Below, piece by piece: positions 4,877-64,000 of a DNA stretch of 64,000 nucleotides (positions within the stretch are counted from its first letter, which is position 1; each line of letters starts with the position of its first letter). The position numbers and the translations under genes were made by a program. The notes under the pieces are model-generated. The model was not told where the DNA came from. It was given only the letters and a program-made list of their open reading frames with translations, and made no database searches. Origin of the DNA: Patescibacteria group bacterium (lineage in GTDB: Bacteria; Patescibacteriota; Minisyncoccia; Phycocordibacterales; SIBU01); contig JAZJZC010000001.1 of the NCBI GenBank assembly GCA_040390045.1, forward strand, positions 254,318 through 318,317. Direction: 5' to 3'.

Positions 4877-4894
4877 AAAATTAGCGCACAAAGC

Positions 4895-25358: not shown

Positions 25359-25470
25359 AGATTGTTTGAAATTGAACCCAAATGATAGCACAAACTGTAC
25401 ATTGGGAAATAACTTGAATGTCTGTAACAAAAATGCTACTTTGCCAAAAGAATCGTAGAAAAGGAACAAC

Positions 25471-26142
25471 ATGAAAAAAAGACTTCTGCAGAAGTATGCA
25501 GCGTTGGTGCGCGTGGTTCGCGAGGAACACATAAAGGCTGGCATGGAAGCGCAGGGACACTGCTTCTATCACTGCTATGCGGCAGCCAATATGTGTCTCA
25601 CAATTGCGCCGAACAGAAAAATTGCTGAATTGGCGTGGGTAGCGGCGATGCTCCACAACATTGACCACATTTTCGGTAAAAACGTCGTCCAGTGGTACAT
25701 CAATCGCTATCTGGACCTGACGCCCCTTTGCAAACCCGAGAGAGCAATTATTCTCGACGCTGTGCTCAAGCATGGAGACTTCAATTACTCGACCGACGGC
25801 ATTGTCCTTCGAGTCCTGAAGGATGCGGACATGATCGTGAACATGGGACTCACGGTCGCCATGCGCTCCGCCCGGTTTCGCCCGACTACACCGCTTTTCA
25901 ATCCGCGATTTCTCATGCGACGCGATCCTTCAGCAACGTTCAAAGAGCCGGGCACGATCCTCCAAAATCTCAACCACGTTCTCGCGTGGTGGGAAGATGG
26001 TTGGATCCGCCTGCCGAAATCGAAACCCATCGCTCGGCGGAGGTACAAGGCGCTTAGGGCTTATGTCAATGAACTGACCCGACAGCTTGTGGAAGAAGGT
26101 CTGCTCCGGCCGAAGTTCCCCAAAAAACTCATCGTCACCTAA
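25471..26142 (+). CDS. hypothetical protein, tandem paralog A (GC-rich island)
   Basis: His-rich motifs HCFYHC, LHNIDH, KDADM; clearly paralogous to 26278..26961 (shared ELAWVA, LHNIDH/IHNVDH, WIRLPK/WFRLPK); its own terminator follows. Confidence 0.45.
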   Translation: MKKRLLQKYAALVRVVREEHIKAGMEAQGHCFYHCYAAANMCLTIAPNRKIAELAWVAAMLHNIDHIFGKNVVQWYINRYLDLTPLCKPERAIILDAVLKHGDFNYSTDGIVLRVLKDADMIVNMGLTVAMRSARFRPTTPLFNPRFLMRRDPSATFKEPGTILQNLNHVLAWWEDGWIRLPKSKPIARRRYKALRAYVNELTRQLVEEGLLRPKFPKKLIVT

Positions 26143-28415: not shown

Positions 28416-28791
28416 ACATCTAAAAAATAATTTTGAGGACGAACGTGGGATTATTCACGACATTACAACCCACACACTGATTGATGCTATTACCTACATC
28501 ACCTTTAAAAAAGAAAGCGTGCGAGGCAATCACTTCCACAACAAGACGATGCAGTATGATTATATTTTGGAAGGCAAATTTCTCTGCCGTTCAAGAAAAG
28601 GCTACGATGGCAAAGTGGAAGAAGCTACCGTTTCTGCCGGCGATCTCATCACTCACGAATTCCCCGACCATCACGCCTACAAAGCGCTTGAAAATGGAGT
28701 AATGATAAGTTGCACGTTGGGACCAAGACAGGGTGATGAATTTGAAACTGATGTTGTCAGACTCACAGGGAAAGAGAAACTCATTGATTAA
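28405..28791 (+). CDS. cupin-fold sugar 3,4-ketoisomerase (FdtA/QdtA-like)
   Basis: 128 aa; the RGNHFHNK motif matches the RGxHAH active site of the WxcM/FdtA family; it immediately follows a C-methyltransferase. Confidence 0.5.
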   Translation: MIIKHLKNNFEDERGIIHDITTHTLIDAITYITFKKESVRGNHFHNKTMQYDYILEGKFLCRSRKGYDGKVEEATVSAGDLITHEFPDHHAYKALENGVMISCTLGPRQGDEFETDVVRLTGKEKLID

Positions 28792-28795
28792 TTTA

Positions 28796-28838
28796 AAAAG
28801 CCCCCCGATTCGCAAAGCGAATCGGGGGGCTTTTTTTA
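28796..28838. terminator. bidirectional Rho-independent terminator
   Basis: AAAAAGCCCCCCGATTCGC-AAA-GCGAATCGGGGGGCTTTTTTT between convergent genes; shares its core with the hairpin at 15157. Confidence 0.8.
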
Positions 28839-30680: not shown

Positions 30681-31958
30681 ATGCATATCGGGTTCTATTT
30701 CGAAAGTGTAAAACAAGAAGGTGGCGCCTACCAAGTAGCGCTCAACCACCTCGAAGCCCTCCGTGACATACAAAATCACGAATTTATTATCTTTAACACT
30801 TCGCTCGATTTTCCCTTTGATGATTTTAAAAATCTGCCAAATTTTAAAATTATTGATCTCATTAAACGTCCGAAAAACAAAACCGAGGAAAACCCTTCTC
30901 CCACAAGCACTGCTCAAAAAAAGCAAAACCTAAAAAGAAAAGTGGTTTTGTTTTTTTTGGATATTTTAAGGTTTTTTCATCTCTACCGACTGGAAAATTT
31001 TCTAGCCAGATTTAAAGCTCGAGCTCGAGCGAAAATTTTTGACGGCTATGGACTCGACCTTTTGTTGTTCCATGGTACGTCTGAACTTTCGATTTATACC
31101 AACATTCCATCAGTCGTTATTATTCACGACATTCACCACCGCCTCTATCCGCAATTTCCTGAAATGTCTGAAAAAGGTCAGTGGACTAAACGAGAATATA
31201 CCTACAGCCGCATCGACAAAAACACTTTCAGAATTTACGTTGATTCCGAAGTAGGAAAAGAAGATTTAGCACGCGTCTACAACATTGACCCGAAAAAAAT
31301 TGTCATCCTGCGTCCCCTGCCGCCTCCGTATATTCGAACGGAAATTTCGCAATCCGAACTTGTAGAAATTCGCAAAAAATATAATTTACCGGAAAAATTT
31401 CTGTTTTACCCCGCGCAATTTTGGCCACATAAAAATCACAAAAACTTAGTGCTTGCGGCAAAAATTCTCCGCGACCAAGGCGTTACTGTTCCTATCGTTC
31501 TTGTTGGATCGAAAAAAGAGCTCTGGGGAGAATATGATCGAGTGGTCAACCTCGTTAAAGAAAGTGGATTGGAAAGACAAGTCCTATTTCTAGGCTTCGT
31601 CCCAATTGAAGACATTTCGCCGCTGTATCGCCTCGCCACCGGACTTATCATGCCGGTCTATGTCGGTTGGACCTACGTACCGATTGTTGAGGCTTGGGCC
31701 ATGGAGTGTCCTATAATTTATTCGACTGCGCGCGGTTGTAGAGAACAAGGAGGAGATAGCGCTCTGTACGTTGACCCGTACAAACCAGAAGACATCGCTC
31801 TAAAAATAAAAGAATTTTGGCAGAATCCGCAACTGAGAGCGACACTTATTGAAAACGGCAAGCTACGCTTGGCAGCTTGGACGAGAAAAGATTTTAACAG
31901 TACAATTGAGAACGTCATCAATGAATTCGAACAACAAAAACACCATTCCAGTAAATGA
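30681..31958 (+). CDS. GT4 family glycosyltransferase
   Basis: C-terminal GFVPIEDISPLYRLATGLIMPVYVGWTYVPIVEAWAMECPII (E-x7-E region). Confidence 0.6.
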   Translation: MHIGFYFESVKQEGGAYQVALNHLEALRDIQNHEFIIFNTSLDFPFDDFKNLPNFKIIDLIKRPKNKTEENPSPTSTAQKKQNLKRKVVLFFLDILRFFHLYRLENFLARFKARARAKIFDGYGLDLLLFHGTSELSIYTNIPSVVIIHDIHHRLYPQFPEMSEKGQWTKREYTYSRIDKNTFRIYVDSEVGKEDLARVYNIDPKKIVILRPLPPPYIRTEISQSELVEIRKKYNLPEKFLFYPAQFWPHKNHKNLVLAAKILRDQGVTVPIVLVGSKKELWGEYDRVVNLVKESGLERQVLFLGFVPIEDISPLYRLATGLIMPVYVGWTYVPIVEAWAMECPIIYSTARGCREQGGDSALYVDPYKPEDIALKIKEFWQNPQLRATLIENGKLRLAAWTRKDFNSTIENVINEFEQQKHHSSK

Positions 31959-33054: not shown

Positions 33055-33877
33055 GAAAATTTTTTTAGCAATTACTCCACCAGCCGCGGTACTGCTGGCT
33101 AAAAAAATTTTCGCTCGGAGCCAATATGAATACACCGGCGACTTTGCCAATTGGGAAACTGCGTACAAACAATCAAGCGGCTATGACGATGGTGCAGTTT
33201 TTGAAAAAGTAAAAAAAGCCAGACTACGGGTGCTTTCAGGAGAAAAGAAATACGAGCGAGATTCTGTGGTTTTTGATTCAGTTCAATACTTTTGGCCACT
33301 CCTCTCTGCACTCCTCTTTGCTGCGGCGGAAGAAAAGGGACGACTTTCCGTACTTGATTTTGGAGGCTCTCTCGGTTCAACCTATTTTCAAAACCTAAGC
33401 TTTTTAAAAAATCTCCCGAGTCTTTCTTGGGGTGTTGTAGAGCAAAAACATTTCGTGGAATTCGGAAAAAAATCAGTCGCCAATCCCTCACTGTCATTTT
33501 TTGAAACCATAGAAGAATGTGCCACACAGCTGAAACCGAATGTTGCTCTGTTCTCCAGTTCGATCCAATACCTAGAACGTCCGTACGAAATTTTAGAAAA
33601 AATAAAAAAATTAGGTCTCCCCTACTTAATCTTTGACCGAACAACTATTCTTGATTTCGAACCAGATCGAATTACCCTGCAAACTATTTCCAAAAGAATT
33701 TACGACGCTTGTTTCCCAACGTGGTTTTTAAGCCGTGAAAAATTAATTTCATTTCTCAACGATTCGTATGAGCACATCGAGGAGTGGCCTTCTCTCGGAG
33801 ATCCACTGGCCCTTTCGAGAGCAACAGGACGATATAAAGGTTTCCTGTTTAAACTTAAAAATAAACCGAACCTCTAA
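33038..33877 (+). CDS. putative methyltransferase (TIGR04325/LIC12133-like)
   Basis: NWETAYKQSSGYDDGAVFEKVK and VLDFGGSLGSTYFQ resemble that family; ATG at 33038. Confidence 0.5.
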   Translation: MRNKIKKIFLAITPPAAVLLAKKIFARSQYEYTGDFANWETAYKQSSGYDDGAVFEKVKKARLRVLSGEKKYERDSVVFDSVQYFWPLLSALLFAAAEEKGRLSVLDFGGSLGSTYFQNLSFLKNLPSLSWGVVEQKHFVEFGKKSVANPSLSFFETIEECATQLKPNVALFSSSIQYLERPYEILEKIKKLGLPYLIFDRTTILDFEPDRITLQTISKRIYDACFPTWFLSREKLISFLNDSYEHIEEWPSLGDPLALSRATGRYKGFLFKLKNKPNL

Positions 33878-34938
33878 GCTTTTTCTAAAATATTTTTTAC
33901 CTGTTCGGTTAGGACCGCGCTCGCGCATCGAGTCTTGTATAACTCTTGAGCGCCTAAAGAAATCTGGGCTCTGAGCACAGAATTTTTCTGTAACTCCATT
34001 ATTTTTTCAGCGAGCGCTTCGGGATTTTCAGCCGGTACAAAAAGCGCGTTTACTCTATCCGTCAAAAGTTCGCGGTTACTTTTTGAATCGCGGGTAATAA
34101 ATGGCAGGCCAAGGGCCAGCGCTTCAAAATTTTTATTCTGAATGGTTCGATCGAGGCGTTCGTGATTGCTAAATTGTCCGAGCATTACCTCTGCCGCAAG
34201 CATCGTTTTGCGCAACTCCTCCGTTGAAAGAAAATGAGTAATGAGGGTGACGTTCGACAAATCATATTCCACCATCAAATTCTTAACACTCGTCTGGATC
34301 GGCTCCCCCCATCCAATGATCACAAATTTCACCCTCGCACTTTTCAAAACCCTAGCCGCTTCTATGACAACCAAAACTCCGGTCGCTGGTAAAAACATGC
34401 CGCGAAAAACTACCGTAAACTGAGGATTTTTCTTCACGGTAGGATCAGGATAAAAAACAGCTTCATCAACTCCGGTAAAAACCACTTCGAGTTTGCTCGG
34501 ACTCACGAAAAAATTCTGAGCAATAAAAAGTTTCTGCTGTTCACTCTCAACCAAGATCACATCAGAAAAATAAAAAGCAAAAATATCAGCAATTTTGATT
34601 ATCCAGGCTTTTACAGAAGACTGCGGGTAGATTTCCCTATCAAGCACTGACCGGTCATACCAAGAATCGAGCGCATTAAAAACAATTTTCTTCTTGGACA
34701 AAAACCAAGCCAAGGGTAGTAGCATGGTACTCAAATATCCAACCCATAAAATATCGTACTGACCTTTAAGCGCCTGATGTTTTTTGGCTAATTGAAAAAA
34801 TTTTTTAATCCCGCGAGAATTATCAACACATTCAATGACCGTGTATCCAAGTTTTTTTAGGCCCTCCAAATACACCCGATCGCGAGGAGCGGTGGGATTA
34901 TACATTCCGAAATAACAAATAGTTTTTTGAGGATTCAT
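33874..34938 (-). CDS. glycosyltransferase (GT4-like, GT-B fold)
   Basis: Two-domain GT-B-like organisation, C-terminal FVPAENPEALAEKI. Confidence 0.5.
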   Translation of the reverse strand: MNPQKTICYFGMYNPTAPRDRVYLEGLKKLGYTVIECVDNSRGIKKFFQLAKKHQALKGQYDILWVGYLSTMLLPLAWFLSKKKIVFNALDSWYDRSVLDREIYPQSSVKAWIIKIADIFAFYFSDVILVESEQQKLFIAQNFFVSPSKLEVVFTGVDEAVFYPDPTVKKNPQFTVVFRGMFLPATGVLVVIEAARVLKSARVKFVIIGWGEPIQTSVKNLMVEYDLSNVTLITHFLSTEELRKTMLAAEVMLGQFSNHERLDRTIQNKNFEALALGLPFITRDSKSNRELLTDRVNALFVPAENPEALAEKIMELQKNSVLRAQISLGAQELYKTRCASAVLTEQVKNILEKA

Positions 34939-37042: not shown

Positions 37043-37077
37043 TATACTATTTAATTTGTTAAAACCTCTCTTTCTCT

Positions 37078-37103
37078 ATGTAACCTTTCGAGCGAAAGGT
37101 TAT
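37078..37103. repeat. 26-nt palindromic element ATGTAACCTTTCGAGCGAAAGGTTAT (left copy)
   Basis: Perfect internal inverted repeat AACCTTTCG-AGC-CGAAAGGTT; a near-identical copy lies at 37898..37925. Confidence 0.75.
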
Positions 37104-37184
37104 AACTTAAAATTTGACAAAACAATAATTTTCGTGTTATCGTGGCGCGAGTCACTTCGAAAAATTCAACTGAGAAAGGCCAGT

Positions 37185-37808
37185 ATGGCTAGTCTTTGGT
37201 ATGCACTTTTCAGCTGGGATGTACCGACCGCAACCCATCAAGAACTTGCCACTGCCCACGCGATCGTAACGCAAGCTCACGGGAGAATGAGGAACGGAAG
37301 TGCTGGGCCAGGAAATCGAATCATGGCAAATGTCACCCGGCTTCTGCACTACCAATTTCCTCATCTTCCAATTATGCCACAAGAGGATGTGGCGTTGGCC
37401 GATCCCACACTTCCCTATTACACCGTCATTGGTGGATTACGGGACACTCGCTGCTTCATGGCAACCGTCGCCAAGAAACACAACACCACGGACGGCGGAT
37501 CTGCAACCGGTGCCTCGAACATGCAATGGAACACTCACGCCATTGCACGAGCCCAAGCGGAAATCTGCAAGCAAAATGGTTGGACGAGGATCATTGTGGT
37601 TGCGTTTCCGATACATTGGGGACGAGCCGCAGCGGTCTACCGGAAACTGGGGTTGACCCCTCTCATGGCTGAGATGCCTGCAGATCTCGGAGCCTACATG
37701 CATCCATATCTGATTCCCAGCGGCCTGCTTGGAATTCAAACTGTCAGCAAGTTCCGAAAGCGAGAACTGCTCTGCCGAATTCTTTTCTGGCTCAAGAATT
37801 GGATTTGA
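37185..37808 (+). CDS. DUF218/YdcF-like protein (GC-rich island paralog 2)
   Basis: IIVVAFPIHWGRAAAVYRKLG motif; GAAAGG RBS before ATG 37185; strongly GC-rich. Confidence 0.4.
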   Translation: MASLWYALFSWDVPTATHQELATAHAIVTQAHGRMRNGSAGPGNRIMANVTRLLHYQFPHLPIMPQEDVALADPTLPYYTVIGGLRDTRCFMATVAKKHNTTDGGSATGASNMQWNTHAIARAQAEICKQNGWTRIIVVAFPIHWGRAAAVYRKLGLTPLMAEMPADLGAYMHPYLIPSGLLGIQTVSKFRKRELLCRILFWLKNWI

Positions 37809-37897: not shown

Positions 37898-37925
37898 ATG
37901 TAACCTTTCGAGCGAATGGTTACAT
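37898..37925. repeat. 26-28 nt palindromic element ATGTAACCTTTCGAGCGAATGGTTACAT (right copy)
   Basis: Direct repeat of the element at 37078 with one mismatch in the core; the two copies bracket the GC-rich DUF218 gene and its terminator. Confidence 0.75.
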
Positions 37926-38090
37926 AGAGAAATGCGAGATAAAAAACTAAATTTATTTTTTATTTCAAAATAGAATTTTTGCAGTCAGATGCAGTTCGAG
38001 GCGCAAGTGATTTTGCGACTAAAACGTATTCATATACGTGGCAGGAGCAAAATCGTGAAGCAACGAAGAAGGGCGCTGACTGCAAAAGTT

Positions 38091-43543: not shown

Positions 43544-44350
43544 TTATTTTCTCGGCAAACTCCAAAAACGCCGGCAGATATTGAGATGATAGACGTGCCT
43601 CTCCCACTCAAGTCGCCAGGGCAACCGAGTCCCTCGACAAAAAATTAAATTTCGAATATATCGAAAAAAGTAGAGCGCTGAAATTTTTGCATTTTCTAAA
43701 CACACGAGAAGCCAACCCCACAAAGAAATTTGTCCGCGACGAGTGGCCTCGAGTTCAATATAGTGATTCCATTTTTGTCGATGGAACATCGGGTCAGGAT
43801 TCATTGGCACAAGCATGTAATTTTCTAACTTCAGAACCGGCGAGCCGGATTTTACCTCAATGCGTTCGTGAATTGATTTAATGAAATGAGTAACCGCGCC
43901 TTTGTGAAAAAATCGCATTTGTTGAGTTGGGTACGTGGCGGCGCAATCAACAACCTCTCCCTGTAAAACATATTTTCGTGGAACCCAAAACGCGGCTGAT
44001 GGATGCCCCGTCGAAATAATAGTATTGATTTCAGTTTCCAATTTCGGCGTCATCAGCTCATCAGAGTCCAAGAAAAAAAACCACGAGTGACTGGCCGCCT
44101 CAAGCATTTGATTGCGGACACCAGAAAAATCTATAATTTTATTATTCGCATCCTTAAACTCTGATGCTTGAATGAGCACCTTCACGCCGTAGGCTCGAGC
44201 TAAAGACAGTGTTTCATCGGTTGAGCCGCCGTCACAAATAATTATTTCAGAAAAATTGGCAACCGAATCAAGCGCCTTCTGTAAACTTTCTCCGGAATTA
44301 AAGGTGAGAATTCCTACACTACACTGAATTTTGTTTCCGGTTTTATTCAT
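43544..44350 (-). CDS. GT2 family glycosyltransferase
   Basis: CSVGILTFNSGES...ICDGGSTDET...DSDE motifs; ATG 44350 overlaps the upstream stop (ATGAATAA). Confidence 0.6.
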   Translation of the reverse strand: MNKTGNKIQCSVGILTFNSGESLQKALDSVANFSEIIICDGGSTDETLSLARAYGVKVLIQASEFKDANNKIIDFSGVRNQMLEAASHSWFFFLDSDELMTPKLETEINTIISTGHPSAAFWVPRKYVLQGEVVDCAATYPTQQMRFFHKGAVTHFIKSIHERIEVKSGSPVLKLENYMLVPMNPDPMFHRQKWNHYIELEATRRGQISLWGWLLVCLENAKISALYFFRYIRNLIFCRGTRLPWRLEWERHVYHLNICRRFWSLPRK

Positions 44351-45446
44351 GCTTTTTAAATGACTCAATGTTGGAAATTATTTTAGAAACAAACGATTTT
44401 AAACTGTGATCTCTCTCAACAATCGCCCGCAATTTCAGACCAAGAGAAAATCGCTCTTCCGAACTCATTTTGGCTATACCCAGGATTTTGTCAGATAAAG
44501 CCTTAAAATCAGCCTTTGGATACATTAAATCGCCTACAAATGGCCCTAAAACGTCCTTAAATGCCTCATTACAGGTCAAAATGGGCAATCCCACAGCCAT
44601 AGCCTCCGGGACGACTTTATCGAGGCTGCCGGTATGTCCCATGTTAACGAAAAGATCATACTCGGAAAGCTTATATGGAAGGTCCACATTAGCAACTGCA
44701 CCCTTAAAATTGATGACGCCCGACAAATCCTTTTTAGCAACTTTTTCCTTTAGACGAGCTAAATATGCCTCGTCCAAAAAGGTTAATCTCGGTCCTATGA
44801 TGTCAACCGTAATTGGCGTAGAAATTTCTTGACGGACCTTTTCAATCGCCTCAATCAACGTATCGTAATCTTTCGATGGTGTGATTCTTCCTACTGTTAC
44901 AATCCGAAGTTCCTTTTGGTTTGTGTTCTGTGGTCTGTGTTCCGTGTTAAATTTCCCCGTGTCGATTCCCTGTCCGATCACCTTTACTTTTTTGCTTTTT
45001 AATCTGAACCCGCTCGTAGTCGATGTAAAAACAATATCCGTAAAAAACAAAGCCACTTTCAAATGCCAGGGCGTGCTTTTATGGGCGTACCAAAGCGTCA
45101 CAGTTTTACCAAAAAGTTTCCAAAAAATTCCTCCGAGAACAATGTATTCTGGATTCATGTGGACGAACACTGCGTCGTATTCATTTCTATTTTGTACGAT
45201 ATATCGTACAAAGCGCCACGAATACAGAAGTCGAGAAAAAGTTTTTAGTTTGTAGTTTGTAATTTTTAGCTTTTCTTTTCCCAAAGAAAAAACCTTTACA
45301 TTGTTCGGCAAATTAACTTCGCCTTTTTCAAGACAAATCGCCACCACGCTTTCTGCCTGTTTAGAAAACTCCGCAATCCAACCATGCATAAACCCGAGCA
45401 CCGCGTCTCGCTCATCAATTTTTTGGGTAACAATTAAAATCCGCAT
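44343..45446 (-). CDS. GT4 family glycosyltransferase
   Basis: GT-B with a C-terminal EAMAVGLPILT region; contains a 20-nt palindrome and a GTGGTCTGTGTTCCGTG repeat shared with 50606..51781. Confidence 0.65.
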   Translation of the reverse strand: MRILIVTQKIDERDAVLGFMHGWIAEFSKQAESVVAICLEKGEVNLPNNVKVFSLGKEKLKITNYKLKTFSRLLYSWRFVRYIVQNRNEYDAVFVHMNPEYIVLGGIFWKLFGKTVTLWYAHKSTPWHLKVALFFTDIVFTSTTSGFRLKSKKVKVIGQGIDTGKFNTEHRPQNTNQKELRIVTVGRITPSKDYDTLIEAIEKVRQEISTPITVDIIGPRLTFLDEAYLARLKEKVAKKDLSGVINFKGAVANVDLPYKLSEYDLFVNMGHTGSLDKVVPEAMAVGLPILTCNEAFKDVLGPFVGDLMYPKADFKALSDKILGIAKMSSEERFSLGLKLRAIVERDHSLKSFVSKIISNIESFKKHE

Positions 45447-45529
45447 ACTTCATTGTAACTTAGAAACCTCGTCGCGACTTACTTGCTAAAGTATATCATT
45501 CGTGTTATTGTTTTTTCAGTAAAAAAGGT

Positions 45530-46177
45530 TTGCGATCCAGCCAACCTGAAAGCGAAAGGGAGTTTGTGTTTGACACCTTATTGCAGTACCTCGTAAGCAA
45601 GTGGGGAGTCGAAAACGCGTTGCCTCCAGAGGCTCCGCCAATTGACTTCTTCATAGGAATTTCCTATGGCATGACCCGCACAAATCTTACAGTTGCCACC
45701 GAACGAATCACCCGTCTTACTGCGGAGATGGCGAGAGCGCAGCAAGCGCCAATTATCATTAGTTGCTGTGAATACTTATTTCGAGGCGCAGCATTTAGCG
45801 AGTGGCAACTGCGGCATCGAATTTTCGAAACCTTTCGTGTTCGATACTACCGAGCCGGTGACATGAATAATTCGATGCAGGAATCTCGGCAAATCCTCAA
45901 ATGCGTCTCCGAACATGGATTACCGACAAGACACATCGGCATCGTCACGGGAATTGGCCATTCTCGGTTCGTTAGTGAGCGGTACGGGAAACTTTTCCCG
46001 AACTCGAAAATCACGATTACCTGTGTTCCTTTCGACTCAGAATATCAACCGGATCACCCAGCCTGGATTCAGCGGGGACCGTGGAGGTGGCTCTTCGCTC
46101 ATGTTGCAAGGCAGATACTCTATCACGTGCGTGGCGAGAAAATGGCCGACATGCAACATTGGGTGCCAAAGGCATAA
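45530..46177 (+). CDS. DUF218/YdcF-like protein (GC-rich island paralog 3)
   Basis: IGIVTGIGHSRFVSERYGKLF motif; its N-terminus aligns with paralog 22268 (ENALPPEAPP vs TDALPPESHM); the ORF begins at a TTG (no ATG until codon 47), so the start is uncertain. Confidence 0.4.
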   Translation: MRSSQPESEREFVFDTLLQYLVSKWGVENALPPEAPPIDFFIGISYGMTRTNLTVATERITRLTAEMARAQQAPIIISCCEYLFRGAAFSEWQLRHRIFETFRVRYYRAGDMNNSMQESRQILKCVSEHGLPTRHIGIVTGIGHSRFVSERYGKLFPNSKITITCVPFDSEYQPDHPAWIQRGPWRWLFAHVARQILYHVRGEKMADMQHWVPKA

Positions 46178-46211
46178 TTATCCAAACTGAACTCTCGCAG
46201 TTCAGTTTTTT

Positions 46212-47771
46212 CTATATTTTTTTCTTGGCAATAACGTATAAATGACACGCCACAGCATCCGCTCCGGGCATCCAAAAAAACAGAAAATCAAAAAATTTAA
46301 ACGGGCCCATGAAAAGCATTAAGAAGTGTGTAATAAATGGCGCGGCTTTTTTAGAACCAAAAGATAAAATGACACCGAACCAATAAGCTTTAAACATAAG
46401 GAGCGCGCTAAAAGGACCGGAACGAACTCCTGTTTCAACAATTTCCATTTCTTTAAATAAGTGCCTGAGACCACTTGTCGTCCAACGATTAAAATCATCT
46501 GGCGAGGCATGATACGGGTGAATAAACGGCGCGCTTATATACAAGTAGCCTCCGGGTTTTAAAATACGAATCATTTCCGAAGCTACGACGTTTGGATCTG
46601 CCACGTGTTCGAGCACAGATTCCGACACAAGCGCGGGAATAGAATTGTCAGCAAAAGGTAGCGCAGAAGCATCAGCCACAATATCAACTTCAGGAAATGG
46701 AAAAATATCGATGTTGATAAATTCCTTACCGATTCTTTCAGGACCAGACCCGACGTCGAGAGTCAGAGTATTCTCGGGCAAATATTTTCTAATTTTCCTC
46801 GGGCCATTGACCAACATCAACACCGGGCAGAAAAAATGCCAGATCGCATAATACAAAAGCGGCCACTGTTTGAAAAAAGATTTCAGCCAGTTGATGCCAC
46901 TTTCATGCTCTTCTTTAAATTGCTCACGAGAAGTTTCTGAGATTAAAAATGGCCGACCAGAATTATCTACCGGATATTTTTTACCGTTTTGAGCAACCAA
47001 AAAATTACCTTCTTTTTTTAACGGCTGATGATCAACCGGATCAACAATCAACCTGAGTGTGTCCTTCGCCTGTTTAGCAGCTTCTTTTTTTAAATGTCCC
47101 AAACGATCTTTAATAATTAAAAGTATCGCTTCGATGCCGTCGCGATAGCGAATCTTCTTCCCTTCCCCAACACTTCTCGGAGCGTGAGAGATTGGAACTT
47201 CAAGTACGCGGAAACCAGCGCGAAGCGTTTGCACAATAAACGCAATGTCCCCTTCAAATCTTTTACCAGAATAAAATTGCTTGGCTCGAGCGGGGAAAAT
47301 TTTGTAGCAGGTCCAAACGTCGGTAAATCCGGCTCCGTAAAGTACATTTATCAATTTAGTCGTCACCCAAGTTCCCAAACGTTGCACATAAAACCCACGA
47401 CGCTTCACGTTGTGCAAATTGCGCGAACCGTAAACAATTGTGTTGTCATCCGTCGCAAATTTTAAAAGCTCTGGAATTTCCGCTGGATTGTACTCGAGAT
47501 CGGCATCTTGAATGATTAAAAAATCTCCAGTAGCAAGCGCCAACCCATCCTGAACAGAAGTTCCTTTGCCTTTGTTTTGCGCGTGACGAAAAATTTTTAG
47601 TTCCGAGGCGTTGGCGGTGAGAATGTCTGAAGTCTTGTCCGTTGACGCATCATCCACCGCCACCACTTCGATTTCCCAATCTGGAATACGGACGTTGAAA
47701 ACCCGCTTCAAAAGTTCGGGTAAGGTTTTCTCTTCGTTATAGATCGGAATTATGATTGAAAGCTTACGCAT
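46212..47771 (-). CDS. GT2 glycosyltransferase fused to a class I SAM methyltransferase domain and a C-terminal TM region
   Basis: N-terminal SIIIPIYNEE...VDDASTDKT...DADLEY is Dpm1-like GT2; the middle LTLDVGSGPERIG...ILKPGGYLYIS is Methyltransf_11-like; a hydrophobic C-terminus follows. Confidence 0.65.
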   Translation of the reverse strand: MRKLSIIIPIYNEEKTLPELLKRVFNVRIPDWEIEVVAVDDASTDKTSDILTANASELKIFRHAQNKGKGTSVQDGLALATGDFLIIQDADLEYNPAEIPELLKFATDDNTIVYGSRNLHNVKRRGFYVQRLGTWVTTKLINVLYGAGFTDVWTCYKIFPARAKQFYSGKRFEGDIAFIVQTLRAGFRVLEVPISHAPRSVGEGKKIRYRDGIEAILLIIKDRLGHLKKEAAKQAKDTLRLIVDPVDHQPLKKEGNFLVAQNGKKYPVDNSGRPFLISETSREQFKEEHESGINWLKSFFKQWPLLYYAIWHFFCPVLMLVNGPRKIRKYLPENTLTLDVGSGPERIGKEFINIDIFPFPEVDIVADASALPFADNSIPALVSESVLEHVADPNVVASEMIRILKPGGYLYISAPFIHPYHASPDDFNRWTTSGLRHLFKEMEIVETGVRSGPFSALLMFKAYWFGVILSFGSKKAAPFITHFLMLFMGPFKFFDFLFFWMPGADAVACHLYVIAKKKI

Positions 47772-49146
47772 TTGGAAACCATTTCTTAATCAAACAACGA
47801 CGTAATACTACAAACCCGTAGACCGCGAAAGTAAATATAAAAACATTCACCGGAATCCGGAAACGCCCGTTCATGCCAAAGCCGTTGGCTGAGGTGAGGA
47901 CTGCAAAATAGGCTACCATTATAAGTCCCGTATAGGCAAACGGAGAAAATTTTTCCTTATACAAATACAGCGCGGCGCCGGCAAAAAATAATAGTGTAAT
48001 TGCAATCCAAAATAATCGCACCAAAAGCACAAAAATTCCGGGAGAGCTCGCGTACATCAAAATATCCCGCGCTAATTCGAGCGGATCGGTCAAAAGCAAA
48101 ACCAGCGCCGGCTTGTGCAACACATTTGGAATACTAATTCCTCCGTACCCAAGCACCGTGAGCATGTGATCGTGCGTAAAAAAAGTCACCATGCTAATGC
48201 CCATAGATTTCAAAAGTGCCACTTTATGTTGCATCAAAACCGCCACCGACTTGTCAGTGTAGAAACGTGAATTAGAAAGATCGGCTGGACCACCGGGAAC
48301 TTCATCGACGATTGGAATTGCGCTGAGCTCAGATTCATAACTCGTCCCCTTGTCGATCGAAAGCACGGTAGGCACAAGCACAGTGTAGAGATTGTACGCG
48401 GGCTGAGCAGTCAAACCCCACACCCCAAACTCTTTCTTATTTCTGAGCACCCAAGGCAGAAGAACTAAAGCAACAACAAAAACAAAACAGAGTAACTGTT
48501 TGAAAAACCGGAGCGACAATTGTTTTCGGTAATGCAACAATAACAAAACCGGAATGATAATCGGCAAAAATTGCACCGTCGGCTTAATCAAAATTGAAAG
48601 TCCCAGGAAAAACCCGGCGAGCGCAATTGATTTAGTAGCTTGAGAATCCAAATATCTAAAAATAAAAACCAAAAACAACAAGAATAAAAAGGTAAAACTG
48701 GTTTCTGAAACCACCATGGTGGAAGAATAAATAGCTGCTGGCTCAAGCGCCAGAAAAAGACCAACGAGCCACGTGTACCGGCTTGGGAAAATTTTTCCTG
48801 CGAGATACATCCCAAGAATCGGAATGAGGCTCGAAAGGATGAGTTGGAAAATGTACACCGGCACATACGAGTGAAAAATTTTAGCGATCAACGCCATTGT
48901 GACAATCCATGCTGGTGGACGCATAGCGTTTGGCACAAACGGGGCTTGTGCAGATTCTGAATAGCCATTACCCGCGATTAAATTTTCACTAATTTCGAAA
49001 TAGCCATCCGCACCGCGAACCGTTCCAATAAAGTCGCCGTGATTGAAATTTAAATACACAAAAAAAAGCCCTAACCGAAGAGCAACCGCAATACTGAAAA
49101 TTATCATATAAGCCTTGTGTTTTTGGAAAAAAGCCCTGAAATTCAT
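47764..49146 (-). CDS. GT-C fold membrane glycosyltransferase (ArnT/PMT-like)
   Basis: 460 aa polytopic membrane protein with an N-terminal glycosyltransferase-39/83-like loop. Confidence 0.55.
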   Translation of the reverse strand: MNFRAFFQKHKAYMIIFSIAVALRLGLFFVYLNFNHGDFIGTVRGADGYFEISENLIAGNGYSESAQAPFVPNAMRPPAWIVTMALIAKIFHSYVPVYIFQLILSSLIPILGMYLAGKIFPSRYTWLVGLFLALEPAAIYSSTMVVSETSFTFLFLLFLVFIFRYLDSQATKSIALAGFFLGLSILIKPTVQFLPIIIPVLLLLHYRKQLSLRFFKQLLCFVFVVALVLLPWVLRNKKEFGVWGLTAQPAYNLYTVLVPTVLSIDKGTSYESELSAIPIVDEVPGGPADLSNSRFYTDKSVAVLMQHKVALLKSMGISMVTFFTHDHMLTVLGYGGISIPNVLHKPALVLLLTDPLELARDILMYASSPGIFVLLVRLFWIAITLLFFAGAALYLYKEKFSPFAYTGLIMVAYFAVLTSANGFGMNGRFRIPVNVFIFTFAVYGFVVLRRCLIKKWFPNA

Positions 49147-49189
49147 ACTGGGTATACTAGCACTCGATTTCTCAATACAAAAGCCTCAC

Positions 49190-49648
49190 TTACTTTGTCC
49201 GTTTGAAAATAAAAAGACGATAAATAAAAAAAGTGACACAGGCAATTCCTATAGTCACAAGTAACTTTGAGAAAATATACCAAAGATGCAACACTTCAAC
49301 TAAAACGTACATCAAGGCGGCTGTCACAAAATAATTGGCGAGCGCGACTAAAAAATACCACGTAGCCTGAGCATGAACTCGATCGACAGATGTGTCTTCA
49401 AAAGCCCAAAATTTTTGTAGCGTAAAGCTGACGCAAAATCCAACAAGAAACCCGGCACTGACTGCCGGCACCAAAGACATACCCAAAAAATCTTTACAAA
49501 CGTAGAGTGTGCTCGTGTCAGTTACAAAAGCCGCTCCACCAGAAAAAATAAAAGCAATAACGGTTCGTCTCTTAAAAAGAATACTGTGAACTTTTGGCGA
49601 AAGCGTTTGCAGAAAATTCCAGACGCTTGTTTCGAGCTTCTTGAGCAT
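49190..49648 (-). CDS. GtrA family membrane protein (putative polyprenyl-phosphate-sugar flippase)
   Basis: 152 aa, 4 TM segments, the FxxSGGAAFVTD motif region is typical of GtrA. Confidence 0.7.
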   Translation of the reverse strand: MLKKLETSVWNFLQTLSPKVHSILFKRRTVIAFIFSGGAAFVTDTSTLYVCKDFLGMSLVPAVSAGFLVGFCVSFTLQKFWAFEDTSVDRVHAQATWYFLVALANYFVTAALMYVLVEVLHLWYIFSKLLVTIGIACVTFFIYRLFIFKRTK

Positions 49649-50547
49649 TAATTGTTTTTAAATCGTTTTAGGAAATCAGAACCGTACACACCAGTTAAAA
49701 GATCCAAATCCTTTTTGCTCTTCATCAACAGATCAACATTTTTATCTCGCAAACTTTCCAAAACTTCGACGCCATATGTATCCCCCACCATTTTTTCGTA
49801 CAATTCTGAAAACGCCGCGAAGTCTTTAATAAAACAGTGCCCTCCGGCGCCTCGTCCACTCTTGTGTACCGGCTCCAAATGACTCGCTCCAATCCGCGGA
49901 TCAGCAGCCACAGCATTCTTCACCGTAGACCAATCAATATTTTCTTTTTCTGCCAAATCATGAAAAATGTTGGCAAAGATTAATTTAAAATAGAAAAAAC
50001 AATTTCCTGCGTATTTTATAAGTTCCGCTTCTTTTGCTCCGGTGATTAATTCAAACGGAGCTTTCGGCAAAATCGCCATCACATCCTTCGCCTTAGCCGC
50101 GTGCTCTTTCGAATCTTTTGGAACACCGATAATGTTCCGCTCAGGCTCTGCCGCGTCTTTACTTGCGGTCACTTCTCGTAAAAATTCTGGAGAATGGAAA
50201 ACGTAGATATCTGGATTTTCATTTTGAATGGAAAGCGTCGTGCCAGGAACAATGGTTGATTTAATAACAGCTGTCTTCCCCTTCCCCAAAAGTTTTACGG
50301 CATCACGAATAATATGATCATCAAACCCTTCACTCGTAGTCGGTGTTGGGACTGCGATAAAAACCACATCACAATCTTTAATTTTTGATTTGTTTTGTAT
50401 GTATGGCGTTTCCAATGAATAGCGGACAATAGAAAATCCTCGATTTTCAAAATCATCTGCGTAGGCCTTTCCCACAAAACCCTGGCCAATAAAGCCGACA
50501 AGTGGCTTAGCCTTACTATTTGATTTGGCGGCTTTTTTTGTTGGCAT
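49648..50547 (-). CDS. UDP-glucose/GDP-mannose dehydrogenase family protein (short form)
   Basis: N-terminal VGFIGQGFVGK Rossmann motif and a central GGHCFIKD region (compare GGSCFPKD); only 299 aa, so it lacks the usual C-terminal domain. Confidence 0.5.
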   Translation of the reverse strand: MPTKKAAKSNSKAKPLVGFIGQGFVGKAYADDFENRGFSIVRYSLETPYIQNKSKIKDCDVVFIAVPTPTTSEGFDDHIIRDAVKLLGKGKTAVIKSTIVPGTTLSIQNENPDIYVFHSPEFLREVTASKDAAEPERNIIGVPKDSKEHAAKAKDVMAILPKAPFELITGAKEAELIKYAGNCFFYFKLIFANIFHDLAEKENIDWSTVKNAVAADPRIGASHLEPVHKSGRGAGGHCFIKDFAAFSELYEKMVGDTYGVEVLESLRDKNVDLLMKSKKDLDLLTGVYGSDFLKRFKNN

Positions 50548-50605
50548 AATTCGACTATTTTACACGAAATTTGACTCTAAGCAAAACATATCCCCCCTCT
50601 CGCAA

Positions 50606-51781
50606 TTAGTTCGATTGGTACGCCCCCTCAATTGAATTTTTGTACTCATGTAAATACTGTTCTTTAGTTTTTGCCAATTCGTCCACCGCGTGCGGTGCAA
50701 TTTGCAAAGCATAAAAAGTTCTCAACTGATTATCTTCTATGAGTTGCGAAATGGTGGAAACAAAACAATTCAAATCATTAACAGGACAATCAAATGAGTG
50801 ACCTTTGTGATTAAGTAGTTCCGGTGCGATGCCCACATCAGATGAAACGGCAGGACAACCACTTGCCACTGCTTCAAAAAGCGCTAACCCAAAACCTTCA
50901 TACAAAGAAGTTTGAAGATACAAATTGGCAGTTTTGTAATAGGAAATCGTGTCATGTTGCCAACCTTCAAAAACCACATTTTTAGAAAGCTGTAAGCTGT
51001 TAGCTTGTAGCTGTAAGCTTCTTTTCAGTGGTCCATCACCAACAATCACCAGTCCCGTCGTTGGATATTTTTTAACCAACTTTTTTAAAATTCGCAGAGC
51101 AAACTGAACATTTTTTTCATACGTTAACCGAGCCACTACCAAAATAATAAAACCGAAATGGGAATACTTTTGCTGGAGACTGAAACTTGGTTCGGCGCTT
51201 CGAAGTTTTTCAACGTCCGTAAAAATCGGCAGTATCTTAGTTCGTAATTCGAAATTCCTAATTCGTAATTCTTTCAAAGAATTGAAAATTCTTTGACTAA
51301 CAACACGAATGGCATTCGCTTTGGGCAACACGCGCCTTGCAATTAAAACACGCACCCTATTGAGAAAAGAGGCTCTTTTAAAATACGGATTAAGAAAATC
51401 AGTGTGAATTTGAATGTGCAGTGGCAACTTGAACCGCGTGGCAATTTTCATCGCCACGTAACCGGTTTCAAAAGGATCCTGCCCTGTAATAACGGAATTA
51501 GGAATTAGGAATTTCGAATTACGAATAATACGCTTCCCAATCCAAATGGCGTCAAAAATATAAAACCATCGATTCCAAGAATTTGTACGATATATCGTAC
51601 AATTAGGAGCGATCTGTATCTTATGCTCCGTGGTCTGTGTTCCGTGGTCTGTTCTCCTCGTCGAGAATACAACGATGTGAAGTTCCTCAAAAAGCCCCGC
51701 ATATTCAACCATCCGCGCGCGAACTGCGCTTCCCTCTTCAAATATTTTCCGATCACTGCTTATTGATAAAACCTTGGTCAT
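50606..51781 (-). CDS. GT4 family glycosyltransferase
   Basis: C-terminal VIVGDGPLKRSLQLQANSLQLSKNVVFEG and YLQTSLYEGFGLALFEAVASGCP (E-x7-E region). Confidence 0.65.
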   Translation of the reverse strand: MTKVLSISSDRKIFEEGSAVRARMVEYAGLFEELHIVVFSTRRTDHGTQTTEHKIQIAPNCTIYRTNSWNRWFYIFDAIWIGKRIIRNSKFLIPNSVITGQDPFETGYVAMKIATRFKLPLHIQIHTDFLNPYFKRASFLNRVRVLIARRVLPKANAIRVVSQRIFNSLKELRIRNFELRTKILPIFTDVEKLRSAEPSFSLQQKYSHFGFIILVVARLTYEKNVQFALRILKKLVKKYPTTGLVIVGDGPLKRSLQLQANSLQLSKNVVFEGWQHDTISYYKTANLYLQTSLYEGFGLALFEAVASGCPAVSSDVGIAPELLNHKGHSFDCPVNDLNCFVSTISQLIEDNQLRTFYALQIAPHAVDELAKTKEQYLHEYKNSIEGAYQSN

Positions 51782-53910: not shown

Positions 53911-55098
53911 CTAGACCTGCTCAAAAACTTCCTCTTTCATACGTTTTGCGACGAGGCTCCAATCATATTTTTCCTCTACCATTGCTAAGGCATTATCGAT
54001 AATATATTTTCTTGATTCAAAATCTTTCATCAGTTTCTCAACTTTAAGCGCAATGCTTTTTGGATTTCCTACTTCACAAAATAGTCCTGTCTCGCCATCT
54101 TTCAAGAAATCTAATATGCCGCCGACCGGAGTGGCAATGACTGGAAGTCCGGCCGCCATAGCTTCAATAAAAGAATTACCCATGCCTTCTGAAAGCGAAG
54201 GACGGATGAAAATGTCAGACGCCCACAAATACGGTGGCAGATTTTCATGAGAAATAAATCCCGCAAAATTTATTCGATCATGAAGCTTTAAGCTATCAGC
54301 TTGCAGCTTTAAGCTTTTGTGAAGCTCTCCAGTTCCAATAATCAAAAATTTTACATTTTCAGGCAAATACTGAAGCGCATCAATAATATCTCCAACAGCG
54401 TTTTTAACCACCAGGCGTGATGTTGTGACAATCACGGTATCATCTTCCCCGAACCTAAATTCGCTGCGAATTCGGGTTCGTTCCTCTACTTTTAACTTTT
54501 CACTTTCAACTTTAAACTTGCGGACGTCGACGCCATTCGGTACAACTACTGGCGACGTCCGCGCCCCCATCTCCCTCGCAAAATCCGCCAAGTAATGTGA
54601 AATGGTTTGAATTCTGTTGGCTTTCGTAAAAATCATTTTAAAAATCGGGTACATGAGACCAACGCGGCGTTTAATGTAGGAAATCGGATCGCCTTCCTGC
54701 AACGTCAGGACAAAAGGAATTTCGGGTTTACAAAGTTTAAAAAATAGCGCACCAAATCCGGCGTAGTTGGCCATCACTGACCAAATGACATCATAGTGAT
54801 TTTTTCGATGAAGCGAGAGTGCTTTGAAAAAAGCAAAAAATGGAAAAAAATATTTATAAATTTTAAATTTAGCAAGAAAGGCATTGTCCCCCGCTCGCCA
54901 GCCAAAACCAACTCGGTACACATTGACGTTACCGATCCGTTCAAACTTTGGCGCACTCTTGCGTAGCGTAATCATGTCGAAAGAAATTTCCTCGGGGGAA
55001 ATCCTGTCCGTAATTTCTTTCACTGCCACTTCTGCCCCTCCGATAAATCGCGGATAGTAGACTAAAGAAAAAATTAAAATTCGTTTCGTTTTATTCAT
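53911..55098 (-). CDS. GT4 family glycosyltransferase
   Basis: IIGTGELHKSLKLQADSLKLHDRINFAG and SLSEGMGNSFIEAMAAGLPVIAT (E-x7-E region). Confidence 0.65.
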   Translation of the reverse strand: MNKTKRILIFSLVYYPRFIGGAEVAVKEITDRISPEEISFDMITLRKSAPKFERIGNVNVYRVGFGWRAGDNAFLAKFKIYKYFFPFFAFFKALSLHRKNHYDVIWSVMANYAGFGALFFKLCKPEIPFVLTLQEGDPISYIKRRVGLMYPIFKMIFTKANRIQTISHYLADFAREMGARTSPVVVPNGVDVRKFKVESEKLKVEERTRIRSEFRFGEDDTVIVTTSRLVVKNAVGDIIDALQYLPENVKFLIIGTGELHKSLKLQADSLKLHDRINFAGFISHENLPPYLWASDIFIRPSLSEGMGNSFIEAMAAGLPVIATPVGGILDFLKDGETGLFCEVGNPKSIALKVEKLMKDFESRKYIIDNALAMVEEKYDWSLVAKRMKEEVFEQV

Positions 55099-63551: not shown

Positions 63552-63570
63552 TAAACTCATTATTCTAATG
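63552..63570. promoter_or_regulatory. 19-nt repeat ATTCTAATGTTCTCAAGAA (copy 1) within an imperfect palindrome
   Basis: AATGTTCT...AGAACATT inverted arms; an identical 19-mer occurs at 63865..63883 on the other side of the ArsR gene. Confidence 0.5.
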
Positions 63571-63847
63571 TTCTCAAGAACTTCAGAACATTCTCTGCTC
63601 GTGATGTAAGTTTATGACGAACCGAAACACTATCCGACTTCTTGAGCACAAGACCAGCAATGGCAAGGCGTCGTAAATGATCTGAGGCTGTCTTATAGTT
63701 TAGTTTAAGTAATTCGGTAACTTCATCAACAGACATTTCTGGTGTTTTCTTTAAAACTTCGAGAATTTGAATTCGCCGATGATTTGCAAATCCACGAACC
63801 AGCCGCTCAAGTGTTCTGTAATTTTTTTGTTTCTCCTTCTTTTCCAT
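63560..63847 (-). CDS. ArsR/SmtB-family transcriptional regulator
   Basis: HTH region RRIQILEVLKKTPEMSVDEVTELLKLNYKTASDHLRRLAIAGLV; ATG at 63847. Confidence 0.6.
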   Translation of the reverse strand: MEKKEKQKNYRTLERLVRGFANHRRIQILEVLKKTPEMSVDEVTELLKLNYKTASDHLRRLAIAGLVLKKSDSVSVRHKLTSRAENVLKFLRTLE

Positions 63848-63864
63848 TCGATTGTAGTTTTTAT

Positions 63865-63883
63865 ATTCTAATGTTCTCAAGAA
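63865..63883. promoter_or_regulatory. 19-nt repeat ATTCTAATGTTCTCAAGAA (copy 2), putative ArsR operator in its own promoter
   Basis: Exact direct repeat of 63552..63570, located just upstream of the ArsR start. Confidence 0.5.
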
Positions 63884-64000
63884 TATCAGAATATACTACT
63901 ACATTCAACTTTATAAACCTTTAACTAATTCCCCTCCTATCTTGTAAATATCTCCGGCTCCGACTGTAATAACCACATCATCAGCTCTAGCACTCTTTTT

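Follow-up and report, generated by a model that had tools for sequence, protein, structure and literature searches.

A candidate TrpR-type operator and heptanucleotide arrays overlie GT4 glycosyltransferase genes in a Patescibacteria glycan island

We analysed a stretch of 64,000 nucleotides (below, the window; positions 254,318 to 318,317 of contig JAZJZC010000001.1, assembly GCA_040390045.1) from a metagenome-assembled Patescibacteria genome of the Parcubacteria type, concentrating on repeats inside its genes for GT4-type glycosyltransferases. Nearly the entire window is a glycan-biosynthesis island comprising epimerases, an ABC-2/Wzt exporter, NeuB, GT2 and GT11 enzymes, methyltransferases and eight GT4-type genes. 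Two unrelated DNA-level features overlie GT4 coding sequence here, a 20-nt palindrome and arrays of heptanucleotides. Judging by its sequence and its positions in related genomes, the palindrome is most likely the operator of MES2087489.1, a putative cognate protein of the Trp_repressor family. For both features together we favour, with moderate confidence, the reading that the palindrome is a TrpR-type operator and that the arrays are heptamers copied at the level of DNA.

The repeats lie in three genes on the minus strand: gene A (44343..45446; 367 aa, MES2087683.1; Pfam Glycos_transf_1, E 4e-17), gene B (50606..51781; 391 aa, 100% identical to MES2087689.1, annotated as a glycosyltransferase; Glycos_transf_1, E 3e-32) and gene D (53911..55098; 395 aa, MES2087692.1), the last with two arrays and no palindrome. 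The palindrome TTGTACGATATATCGTACAA occurs exactly at 45192-45211 in gene A and at 51583-51602 in gene B, where shuffled sequences predict none, and there is no further match in the 64-kb window at up to three mismatches, or even at up to five. It is read in different frames, as RFVRYIVQN in A and as NCTIYRTN in B. The 17-mer GTGGTCTGTGTTCCGTG is likewise exact at 44930-44946 (gene A) and 51630-51646 (gene B), with zero expected; the match widens to 23 of 26 bases, and the frames again differ (NTEHRPQN versus DHGTQTTEH). The third repeat is inverted and lies within gene B: a 24-mer is exact at 51241-51264 (plus strand) and 51502-51525 (minus strand), and the complete arms, 51241-51271 and 51495-51525, are 31 nt long, differ at one base and enclose 223 nt. 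An earlier note on this DNA had reported the palindrome in both genes, a shared repeat at 44928-44946 and 51628-51654, both in differing frames, and the inverted repeat; it had called them far beyond chance and had attributed them to DNA rather than to conservation of protein. All of this is borne out, none of the three repeats being due to chance, except that the second arm of the inverted repeat, placed at 51494-51517, was about 8 bases off. What the note overlooked is that every repeat but the palindrome is a period-7 tandem array and that the third GT4 gene, at 53911-55098, has two more.

The palindrome is common outside the window. It was found in at least 120 stretches of public metagenomes, from many groundwater and sediment samples, with at least 135 occurrences, at least 113 of which have distinct flanks. 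The earlier note had allowed for the same words occurring at background frequency; the palindrome is instead hugely over-represented in metagenomes. A scan of viral contigs gave no match, and a phage origin was hence rejected; a literature search returned nothing on the palindrome sequence, nor on heptanucleotide repeats in Patescibacteria. As the palindrome has no stop codon in any frame, it can lie in genes as VRYIVQ, CTIYRT or LYDISYK. Among the matches listed, approximately half of the copies are in long open frames of unrelated proteins (read VRYIVQ in at least 36 cases, LYDISYK/N in at least 12 and CTIYRT in at least 7), the families recognised by conserved motifs including family-A GT4, ArgRS, MiaA, ThrRS and alpha/beta hydrolase. 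These intragenic copies are biased to the 5' side, 32 of 39 among the same matches lying within 316 nt of the start of the open reading frame (ORF), mostly in its first 130-320 nt. For the non-coding copies, the distances to neighbouring ORFs are uninformative with crude ORF calls.

It is the position of the palindrome that associates it with a particular protein. Several copies lie just 5' of a gene whose product begins with MPHVSKH, a 133-aa protein of the Trp_repressor family (PF01371); the MPHVSKH proteins score 36-49 bits, compared to a gathering score of 27. In 10 of 11 PF01371 genes among the matches listed, the palindrome is at most 80 nt upstream, and it is present on both sides of all 13 PF01371 genes having both flanks, with up to four copies upstream and three downstream. 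These clusters at the regulator gene consist of 4-7 perfect copies with a spacing of 77-133 nt. Six regulator genes located without using the palindrome (L001, L078, L201, L202, L204, L206) are all bracketed by it. The regulator of the source genome itself is MES2087489.1 (P0173), which has PF01371 on record and whose relatives (about 82% identity) are those scoring 36-49 bits; its gene resides on the same 323,682-nt contig as MES2087683, MES2087689 and MES2087692, about 200 genes away. In the Logan assembly L201, which encodes a protein identical to MES2087489.1, four exact palindromes (zero expected) fall within 1.3 kb, the first one 26 nt before the regulator start codon, and there is none in the remaining 9 kb.

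The site also co-varies with the protein, as three variants of the recognition helix pair with three variants of the palindrome. Regulators with the helix LKVSPSTVARF/Y (SPSTVAR) are bracketed by (G/T)TACGATATATCGTA(C/A), a site of the ACGATATATCGT type; the helix LKVSPSTLTRF (SPSTLTR), in L001, is accompanied by TAGTACGATATATCGTACTA; and the helix LKLSMTTIYKI (SMTTIYK), in L078, by seven copies of TTACAGTTAACTGTAA. The neighbours of the regulator gene, encoding Pth, an S1-domain protein, HisRS and FtsA, are conserved, hence the gene counts as a chromosomal regulator rather than a transposable unit. On the same ground we rejected the possibility of the TrpR-like gene being a mobile unit with the palindromes as its terminal repeats. 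Several features expected of an operator are found here in combination: a palindrome of about 20 bp, a PF01371 protein encoded by the same genome, copies next to the gene of that protein, and co-variation with its helix. From this arrangement we infer binding of the protein and a regulatory effect at the palindrome, and the copies around its own gene would imply autoregulation by MES2087489.1. The earlier note had offered binding sites selected at the DNA level as one possibility, which fits the palindrome well, as it brackets a Trp_repressor-family gene both here and in relatives and changes together with it.

The known members of the family provide a close comparison. TrpR and HisR (YerC) have 20-bp palindromes of the type TGTAcTnGTnnACnAgTACA, often at their own promoters (PMC9413887), and the operator in PDB 1TRO is TGTACTAGTTAACTAGTACA (PMC2504314). 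The sites of E. coli TrpR and of the Firmicutes HisR resemble the present one in being perfect 20-bp palindromes with TGTA(C)...(G)TACA arms, in having a PF01371 protein in the same genome, in lying just 5' of the regulator's own gene, and in a lineage-specific consensus that tracks the protein. The differences are that the protein here has 133 aa, with an extra C-terminal part, rather than fewer than 100; that the two arms have 2 bp less between them than those of the trp operator; that as many as seven copies surround the regulator gene, on both of its sides; and that the other copies are perfect and mostly situated in coding sequence (GT4 and, by motif, aminoacyl-tRNA synthetases and MiaA) instead of promoters.

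Both window copies of the putative operator are of this intragenic kind. The gene A copy, situated 235 nt past the start codon and translated as VRYIVQ, is common to relatives: at least eight distinct metagenome contigs have it at the same position in family-A GT4 genes, and the 14-nt core TACGATATATCGTA is retained in the family-A orthologue L004. The gene B copy, translated as CTIYRT and situated 179 nt past the start codon, overlies strand beta-3 (E61-65 in the AlphaFold model). None of the 80 other gene-B orthologues has an exact copy; there are quasi-palindromes in its place, at best 18/20. These orthologues encode N-C-W-(I/V)-Y-P-T-N-S, the codons of which form a natural quasi-palindrome (TTGTTGGATTTATCCAACAA in L004, 18/20), while in gene B symmetric TG>AC and CA>GT changes yield the exact palindrome and replace the conserved Trp and Pro. 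The gene B palindrome probably arose recently in this very way, from the C-W-I-Y-P-T codons. Family-D orthologues of two other genomes also have the palindrome at the homologous strand (GNCTIYRT in L185, GNSTIYRT in L001), the gene D of the window reading GNVNVYRV, and in L001 the regulator gene is located within the glycan cluster, between the D and B orthologues. Such recurrent gain of the palindrome at a specific position points to selection at the DNA level and to a link between the regulator and the glycan cluster. The possibility of a mere coding-derived quasi-palindrome copied from A to B was superseded by the metagenome scan.

Inside genes A and B, the palindrome would serve as an intragenic operator, acting as a roadblock or as a looping partner. 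Intragenic auxiliary operators or roadblock sites are exemplified by lac O2 in lacZ and gal OI in galE. As in these cases, a perfect repressor site here lies a few hundred bases into the coding sequence and constrains the amino acids; unlike them, it has no promoter-proximal partner in the window, where nothing matches within five mismatches.

Alternatively, the TrpR-like protein could bind the palindrome as a chromosome-organising or segregation site, as in parS/ParB, NBS/Noc and SBS/SlmA, which we regard as rather improbable. Sites such as parS and those bound by Noc are typically intragenic palindromes, and such a role would agree with the clusters of 4-7 perfect copies, spaced 77-133 nt apart, on both sides of the regulator gene, and with the remaining palindromes being perfect, many of them inside conserved housekeeping genes. 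However, the PF01371 family is known only as small-molecule-responsive repressors, the 5' bias of the intragenic copies fits transcription better than chromosome organisation, and the density is low, with two copies in 64 kb and no exact one in 1.24 Mb of other Parcubacteria loci.

The second feature, the arrays, was detected with Tandem Repeats Finder and a simple autocorrelation scan at lags 3-15. By both methods, the repeats other than the palindrome all consist of degenerate 7-nt units in runs of 28-40 nt; of the lags scanned in the window, only 7 and its harmonic 14 are enriched. All eight non-trivial arrays of the window are confined to the three GT4 genes (two in A, four in B, two in D); they have 3.3-5.0 copies with 78-88% matches in Tandem Repeats Finder, and comprise at least six different units, all intragenic. 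Four more GT4 genes of the window (23116-25544, 30681-31958, 33874-34938) have no array at the thresholds used, hence the arrays are limited to particular GT4 subfamilies (A, B and D, and C-like ones in relatives) and do not belong to the fold as such.

All eight arrays are on the minus strand. Site 1 of gene B (51621..51660) has a period of 7/14, encodes the peptide RRTDHGTQTTEH, shares the 17-mer with the second array of gene A, and corresponds to a low-confidence surface loop, with pLDDT below 50 at residues 45-51. Site 2 (51495..51525; coding strand TTCGTAA TTCGAAA TTCCTAA TTCCTAA TTC) encodes IRNSKFLIPNS and is the upstream arm of the inverted repeat; gene-B orthologues have arrays of the IIRDSKFxIxDS type there. 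The downstream arm is site 3 (51241..51271; coding strand GAATTAC GAATTAG GAATTTC GAATTAC GAA), encoding ELRIRNFELRT. Site 4 (50987..51019; unit AGCTTAC; SLQLQANSLQL) falls on the helix after the GDGP strand in the C-terminal domain, and the array at 54283..54317 in gene D (unit AGCTTAA; SLKLQADSLKL) is homologous to it. The other array of gene D (54488..54519; unit AAAGTTN; peptide KFKVESEKLKVEE) is in the interdomain linker, as is the gene A array containing the 17-mer (44917..44948; unit GAACACA; NTEHRPQNTNQ). The remaining array of gene A follows the SLGKE motif (45240..45269; unit ACAAACT; KLKITNYKLKT) and is an insertion relative to the orthologues L002, L018 and L026.

Since 7 is not divisible by three, a set of three units (21 nt) passes through all three frames and yields a 7-residue peptide, which is repeated about 1.5 times: SLQLQAN-SLQL, LRIRNFE-LRT, KLKITNY-KLKT. 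Selection at the protein level cannot create a 7-nt periodicity; thus, the arrays originate in DNA.

For comparison we used 80 loci with gene-B orthologues of 40-65% identity (1.24 Mb), aligned as 81 orthologues including gene B. There are 73 lag-7 arrays in these loci, compared to at most 12 for any other lag, and 78 compared to at most 6 in 0.79 Mb of unrelated Patescibacteria contigs. Repeats of this class are frequent in the related Patescibacteria contigs that were examined. In the 81 orthologues the arrays occur only at residues 40-58, 84-97, 167-182 and 253-269 (gene B numbering) and nowhere else, the variable C-terminus included; in the AlphaFold model (pLDDT 82.8) these four sites are a disordered loop and three segments each made of a helix end plus loop before a strand. 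The units vary by genome (GAATTAC, AATTGGA, AAAGCTA, CTAAAAA, AAAGTCT, TTACGCG and others). Other GT4 subfamilies have arrays at the same helix of the C-domain and in the interdomain linker.

In the glycan loci, each of the 81 intragenic arrays falls in a GT4 gene, the 45 ORFs concerned all being direct GT4 matches. The rule that arrays occur only in GT4 genes fails, however, outside these loci: in the 0.79 Mb of other contigs they are found in spacers and, by conserved motifs, in genes for IleRS, Pth, TopA, SecA and TsaD. IleRS-like genes of three genomes (L122 945-1114, L129 1100-1267, L187 8897-8937) have arrays at two shared positions, built of different units (WPQVESGIRNQESGII, WPEADSRLKIQDSSII, WPKVESRIKNQELGIM), so that, as in GT4, the site is fixed and the unit changes. 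An inverted partner within 300 nt is present for 23% of non-coding arrays versus 4% of coding ones, and the inverted pairs of non-coding arrays fold into long hairpins. In L018 (Campbellbacteria; 2640-7090), the intergenic spacers of the glycan cluster are filled with arrays, which flank small genes read by sequence as encoding GIY-YIG nuclease, NYN-domain and four-helix-bundle proteins; the array pair at 2647-2765 forms a long hairpin with z = -4.5.

The coding arrays bear traces of selection against stop codons. Units such as CTAAAAA and AAGCTAA contain TAA, which in the would-be stop frame is changed to TAC or TAT, hence the recurrent Tyr in KNYKL and KSYKL. Perfect repetition of the consensus would place an in-frame stop in 51 of 119 distinct coding arrays, and 33% of the deviations from the consensus fall in would-be stop codons versus 12% expected, an excess that is partly circular, as open frames were required. 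At site 2 of gene B, an in-frame TAA is avoided by the second unit, TTCGAAA. The site 2 array reappears at site 3 as its reverse complement, irregular units included, so that site 3 mirrors this TAA-to-AAA edit, although perfect (GAATTAC)n has no stop there; the mirrored base changes the consensus N-Y-x-L to N-F-E-L. Such an unneeded edit indicates inverted copying between the two sites, probably from site 2 to site 3.

Near-identical array pairs are 2-3 times commoner within one locus than between loci, direct and inverted pairs being equally frequent. The L093 orthologue of family A has an array of the same 17-mer type at the same place as gene A, and none of the family-B orthologues has it. 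At site 4 of family B, L045 (10759-10796) and L071 differ by 14-nt blocks, TTACTCG TTACTCG TTACGCG TTACGCG versus TTACGCG TTACGGG TTACGCG TTACGGG, which hints at unit-wise conversion rather than point substitution.

Our proposal for the arrays is that they are made and homogenised in DNA by slipped or template-switched copying in a 7-nt register, and that they persist where the protein tolerates them, selection only removing stop codons. Their toleration would follow from three units equalling seven codons, with all three frames read within one array. Occasionally they may be copied between sites and paralogues in either orientation; the 31-nt inverted repeat would be a copy of site 2 at site 3, and the 17-mer shared by A and B another such copy. 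The earlier note had proposed recombination or gene conversion among paralogues, and of this the copying of short tracts agrees with the arrays, given the mirrored site 3 and the differing frames of the 17-mer.

Another of its suggestions, small inserted elements, leads to a different explanation, in which both the palindrome and the arrays are very small mobile elements, comparable to REP, MITEs, Rickettsia palindromic elements or the small dispersed repeats of cyanobacteria, that can enter genes in any frame since they contain no stop codons. The same 20-mers and unit families (AATTTTC, GAATCAG, CTAAAAA and others) do appear in unrelated genes and genomes, non-coding palindromes lie at hairpin tips, non-coding arrays are frequently paired in inverted orientation, and the arrays at gene B site 1 and after SLGKE in gene A are insertions, longer than array-free orthologues. 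No length is added, in contrast, at sites 2-4 or at the two palindrome positions, where the sequence is overwritten. The arrays have no fixed ends, constant length (they range over 27-51 nt) or target duplications; no transposase is associated with them, the synteny of the TrpR-like gene is conserved, and the palindrome co-varies with a helix-turn-helix protein. We consider this explanation quite improbable. Long tblastn spans in orthologues (L032, L035, L043 and others), taken as candidates for an inserted element, proved to be adjacent GT4 paralogues.

The inverted repeat of gene B could also be an intragenic inverton, and the arrays contingency repeats, switching a surface glycan on and off or causing antigenic variation, as the earlier note had proposed. 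The repeat-flanked segment 51241-51525 is exactly 285 nt (95 codons), so its inversion would keep the downstream frame, with stops introduced; gain or loss of one 7-nt unit shifts the reading frame; and glycosyltransferases are classic phase-variable genes (PMC2651432). The lipooligosaccharide and lipopolysaccharide glycosyltransferase loci of Haemophilus and Neisseria similarly have tandem units that are not multiples of three (PMC2651432), but those are long, perfect and variable between sibling cells, whereas the arrays here are short (4-5 units) and degenerate (78-88% identity), with no variation seen. The ten 90%-identity clusters, which lack strong arrays, contain no array-length variants and differ by substitutions and by frameshifts outside arrays, which leaves phase variation unsupported. 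Nor is the inverted repeat conserved, sites 2 and 3 being direct repeats in L001 and unrelated in most orthologues, and no recombinase family was found among the 56 window ORFs scanned. An exact look-up of the truncated product predicted for the inverted state was negative in a collection of 15 billion proteins, with low power as the genome is a singleton, and inversion likewise lacks support. Altogether, this explanation appears hardly probable at all. In the P0098 cluster, P0135, P0141, P0134 and P0136 are split or truncated close relatives of a gene-B orthologue on contigs of 97-240 kb; their frameshifts lie outside the array sites, which makes them apparent pseudogenes of this GT4 in some populations.

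Heptameric repeats as such are over-represented in bacteria, with about four units preferred, and are poorly understood; examples are GGGAATC of Xanthomonas, GGGGAYT of Nostoc and the STRR of Calothrix (PMC4692102). The arrays described here agree with them in having tandem 7-nt units, about four preferred, many per genome and often near gene ends. They differ in being A/T-rich, so that they cannot form G-quadruplexes; in having many unit families per genome rather than one; and in often being intragenic, in frame and at fixed structural positions, the non-coding copies often forming inverted pairs.

For the copying, a parallel is provided by quasi-palindrome or template-switch mutagenesis (the Ripley model; Lovett and colleagues), which predicts clustered templated substitutions that perfect imperfect inverted repeats. 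The mirroring of site 2 by site 3 and the symmetric TG>AC and CA>GT changes in the gene B palindrome agree with this prediction. That process, however, is known from short-distance reporter assays, whereas here 223 nt separate the arms, and the two genes concerned in one putative copy event lie 6 kb from each other. In model bacteria, mutations by template switching become more frequent when ExoI, ExoVII, SbcCD and MutS/MutL are missing. In Borg elements, the in-gene units are reportedly multiples of three and the repeats perfect and recent, while here the unit has 7 nt, all three frames are read, and the sequence is mostly replaced rather than extended. The likeness is that in Borgs, too, DNA-level tandem repeats arise independently in ORFs and add low-complexity peptide (PMC9879509).

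Several observations weigh against the combined reading of a TrpR-type operator and DNA-level copied heptamers. As to the operator, the window copies are not in promoter regions, both lying in coding sequence, 179 and 235 nt in, and for a repressor it is uncommon to have operators at such a depth (180-235 nt) within a gene. Near either window palindrome, promoter-like matches did not exceed background, and promoter and terminator scans near the repeats stayed at background level. The TGTAC arms are, as said, closer together than in E. coli, and the identity of the gene B copy to that of gene A could be a 1-in-16 coincidence if palindromy alone is maintained. Finally, 27% of the distinct-flank palindromes among the matches listed, mostly non-coding, tip longer, site-specific perfect hairpins, which a plain operator model does not predict.

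As to the arrays, sites 2-4 are equally long with or without an array (site 4, for instance, has 22 residues in 17 of 18 array-bearing and in 59 of 63 array-free orthologues), extra residues being due to arrays only at gene B site 1 and after SLGKE in family A. Where an array is missing, orthologues retain hardly any lag-7 periodicity, barely above background; for this reason, the idea of decayed ancestral arrays in all orthologues was rejected. Equal length together with the lack of residual periodicity means that simple expansion by slippage cannot be the whole story. A purely neutral process also does not obviously predict the confinement to GT4 genes within the glycan loci, and the reading gives no reason for a period of 7.

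The hairpins tipped by palindromes extend them by a perfect inverted repeat of 4-13 nt, the stems differing at every site, and some are terminator-like with T runs; they may reflect hairpin-templated extension or use as terminators. Examples are found in L081-L200, such as L092 1628-1679 (the largest, with 16+20+16 nt), L161, L196, L199 and L142. These structures relate to one more explanation, in which the repeats are selected for RNA structure, the arms pairing in the gene B mRNA and the palindrome forming a hairpin, to control translation, stability or termination. In the fold of the mRNA segment 51225-51540 (-103.7 kcal/mol, z = -6.8) the arms pair along their whole length, the intergenic array pairs of relatives fold as long hairpins (z = -4.5 and -3.6), and some non-coding palindromes are in terminator-like hairpins before T runs. 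However, a strong z-score follows by construction from any perfect inverted repeat; there is no conserved pairing partner in orthologues, where the relation between the sites is direct, inverted or none; and the palindrome accompanies a DNA-binding protein and co-varies with it, which speaks for recognition of duplex DNA. Selection for RNA structure is therefore very unlikely in our estimation.

Some other repeats of the window also adjoin genes. Two copies (88% identical) of a 34-nt repeat, TATTCTAATGTTCTCAAGAAnnTCAGAAnATnCT, at 63561-63594 and 63864-63897, bracket an ArsR-family HTH gene (63560-63880, minus strand; PF01022, 31 bits with a gathering score of 22), in the same layout as for the TrpR-like gene, that is, a regulator with its likely own site on both sides; a similar word, GTTCTCAAGAACTTCAGAATG, adjoins the 20-nt palindrome in L163 (11430-11450). 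The near-palindrome TGTAACCTTTCGAGCGAA(A/T)GGTTACA, in two copies (37071-37102, 37898-37932), brackets an ORF at about 37166-37808 without a Pfam match, and its TGTAAC...GTTACA arms resemble sites of the TrpR/HisR type. Two G+C-rich gene-end hairpins (15147-15196 and 28790-28843) share the stem CCCCGATTCGC / GCGAATCGGGG and look like intrinsic terminators. A 57-nt direct repeat, 84% identical (2-58 and 6879-6935), lies just 5' of two glycan genes, for an epimerase (52-981) and a TylF-type methyltransferase (6929-7594), and may be a shared leader or promoter segment.

A more far-reaching interpretation is that Patescibacteria have a dedicated process in DNA that rewrites defined segments of protein surfaces with a 7-nt periodicity, length-neutrally, and copies such tracts from site to site in both orientations, alongside a TrpR-like network of intragenic palindromes that override conserved residues. 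The former would concern GT4 enzymes and, in relatives, IleRS-, Pth- and TopA-like proteins; the latter would be regulatory or organisational. This interpretation seems to us unlikely, but if true, the rewriting would be a previously unrecognised, templated and frame-blind turnover of protein segments. Independently of it, in-frame heptanucleotide arrays at fixed protein positions are new within a known, unexplained repeat class, and they reopen the old question of why bacteria favour 7-nt repeats. Low-complexity peptides such as KLKTKNYKL, ELRIRNFEL and SLQLQANSLQL are, in this view, largely a by-product of a repeat process in DNA and not of protein design, a point to bear in mind when such genomes are annotated and their proteins are aligned or modelled in structure.

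Hardly any Patescibacteria have been cultivated, and their gene regulation is scarcely understood. The palindrome offers here a testable pair of a regulator and its site, with a named protein, an exact 20-bp sequence, co-varying variants and a first list of candidate targets, which includes a cell-surface glycan cluster and several translation genes. In gene B, this putative DNA-binding site would be strong enough to displace conserved residues of an enzyme.

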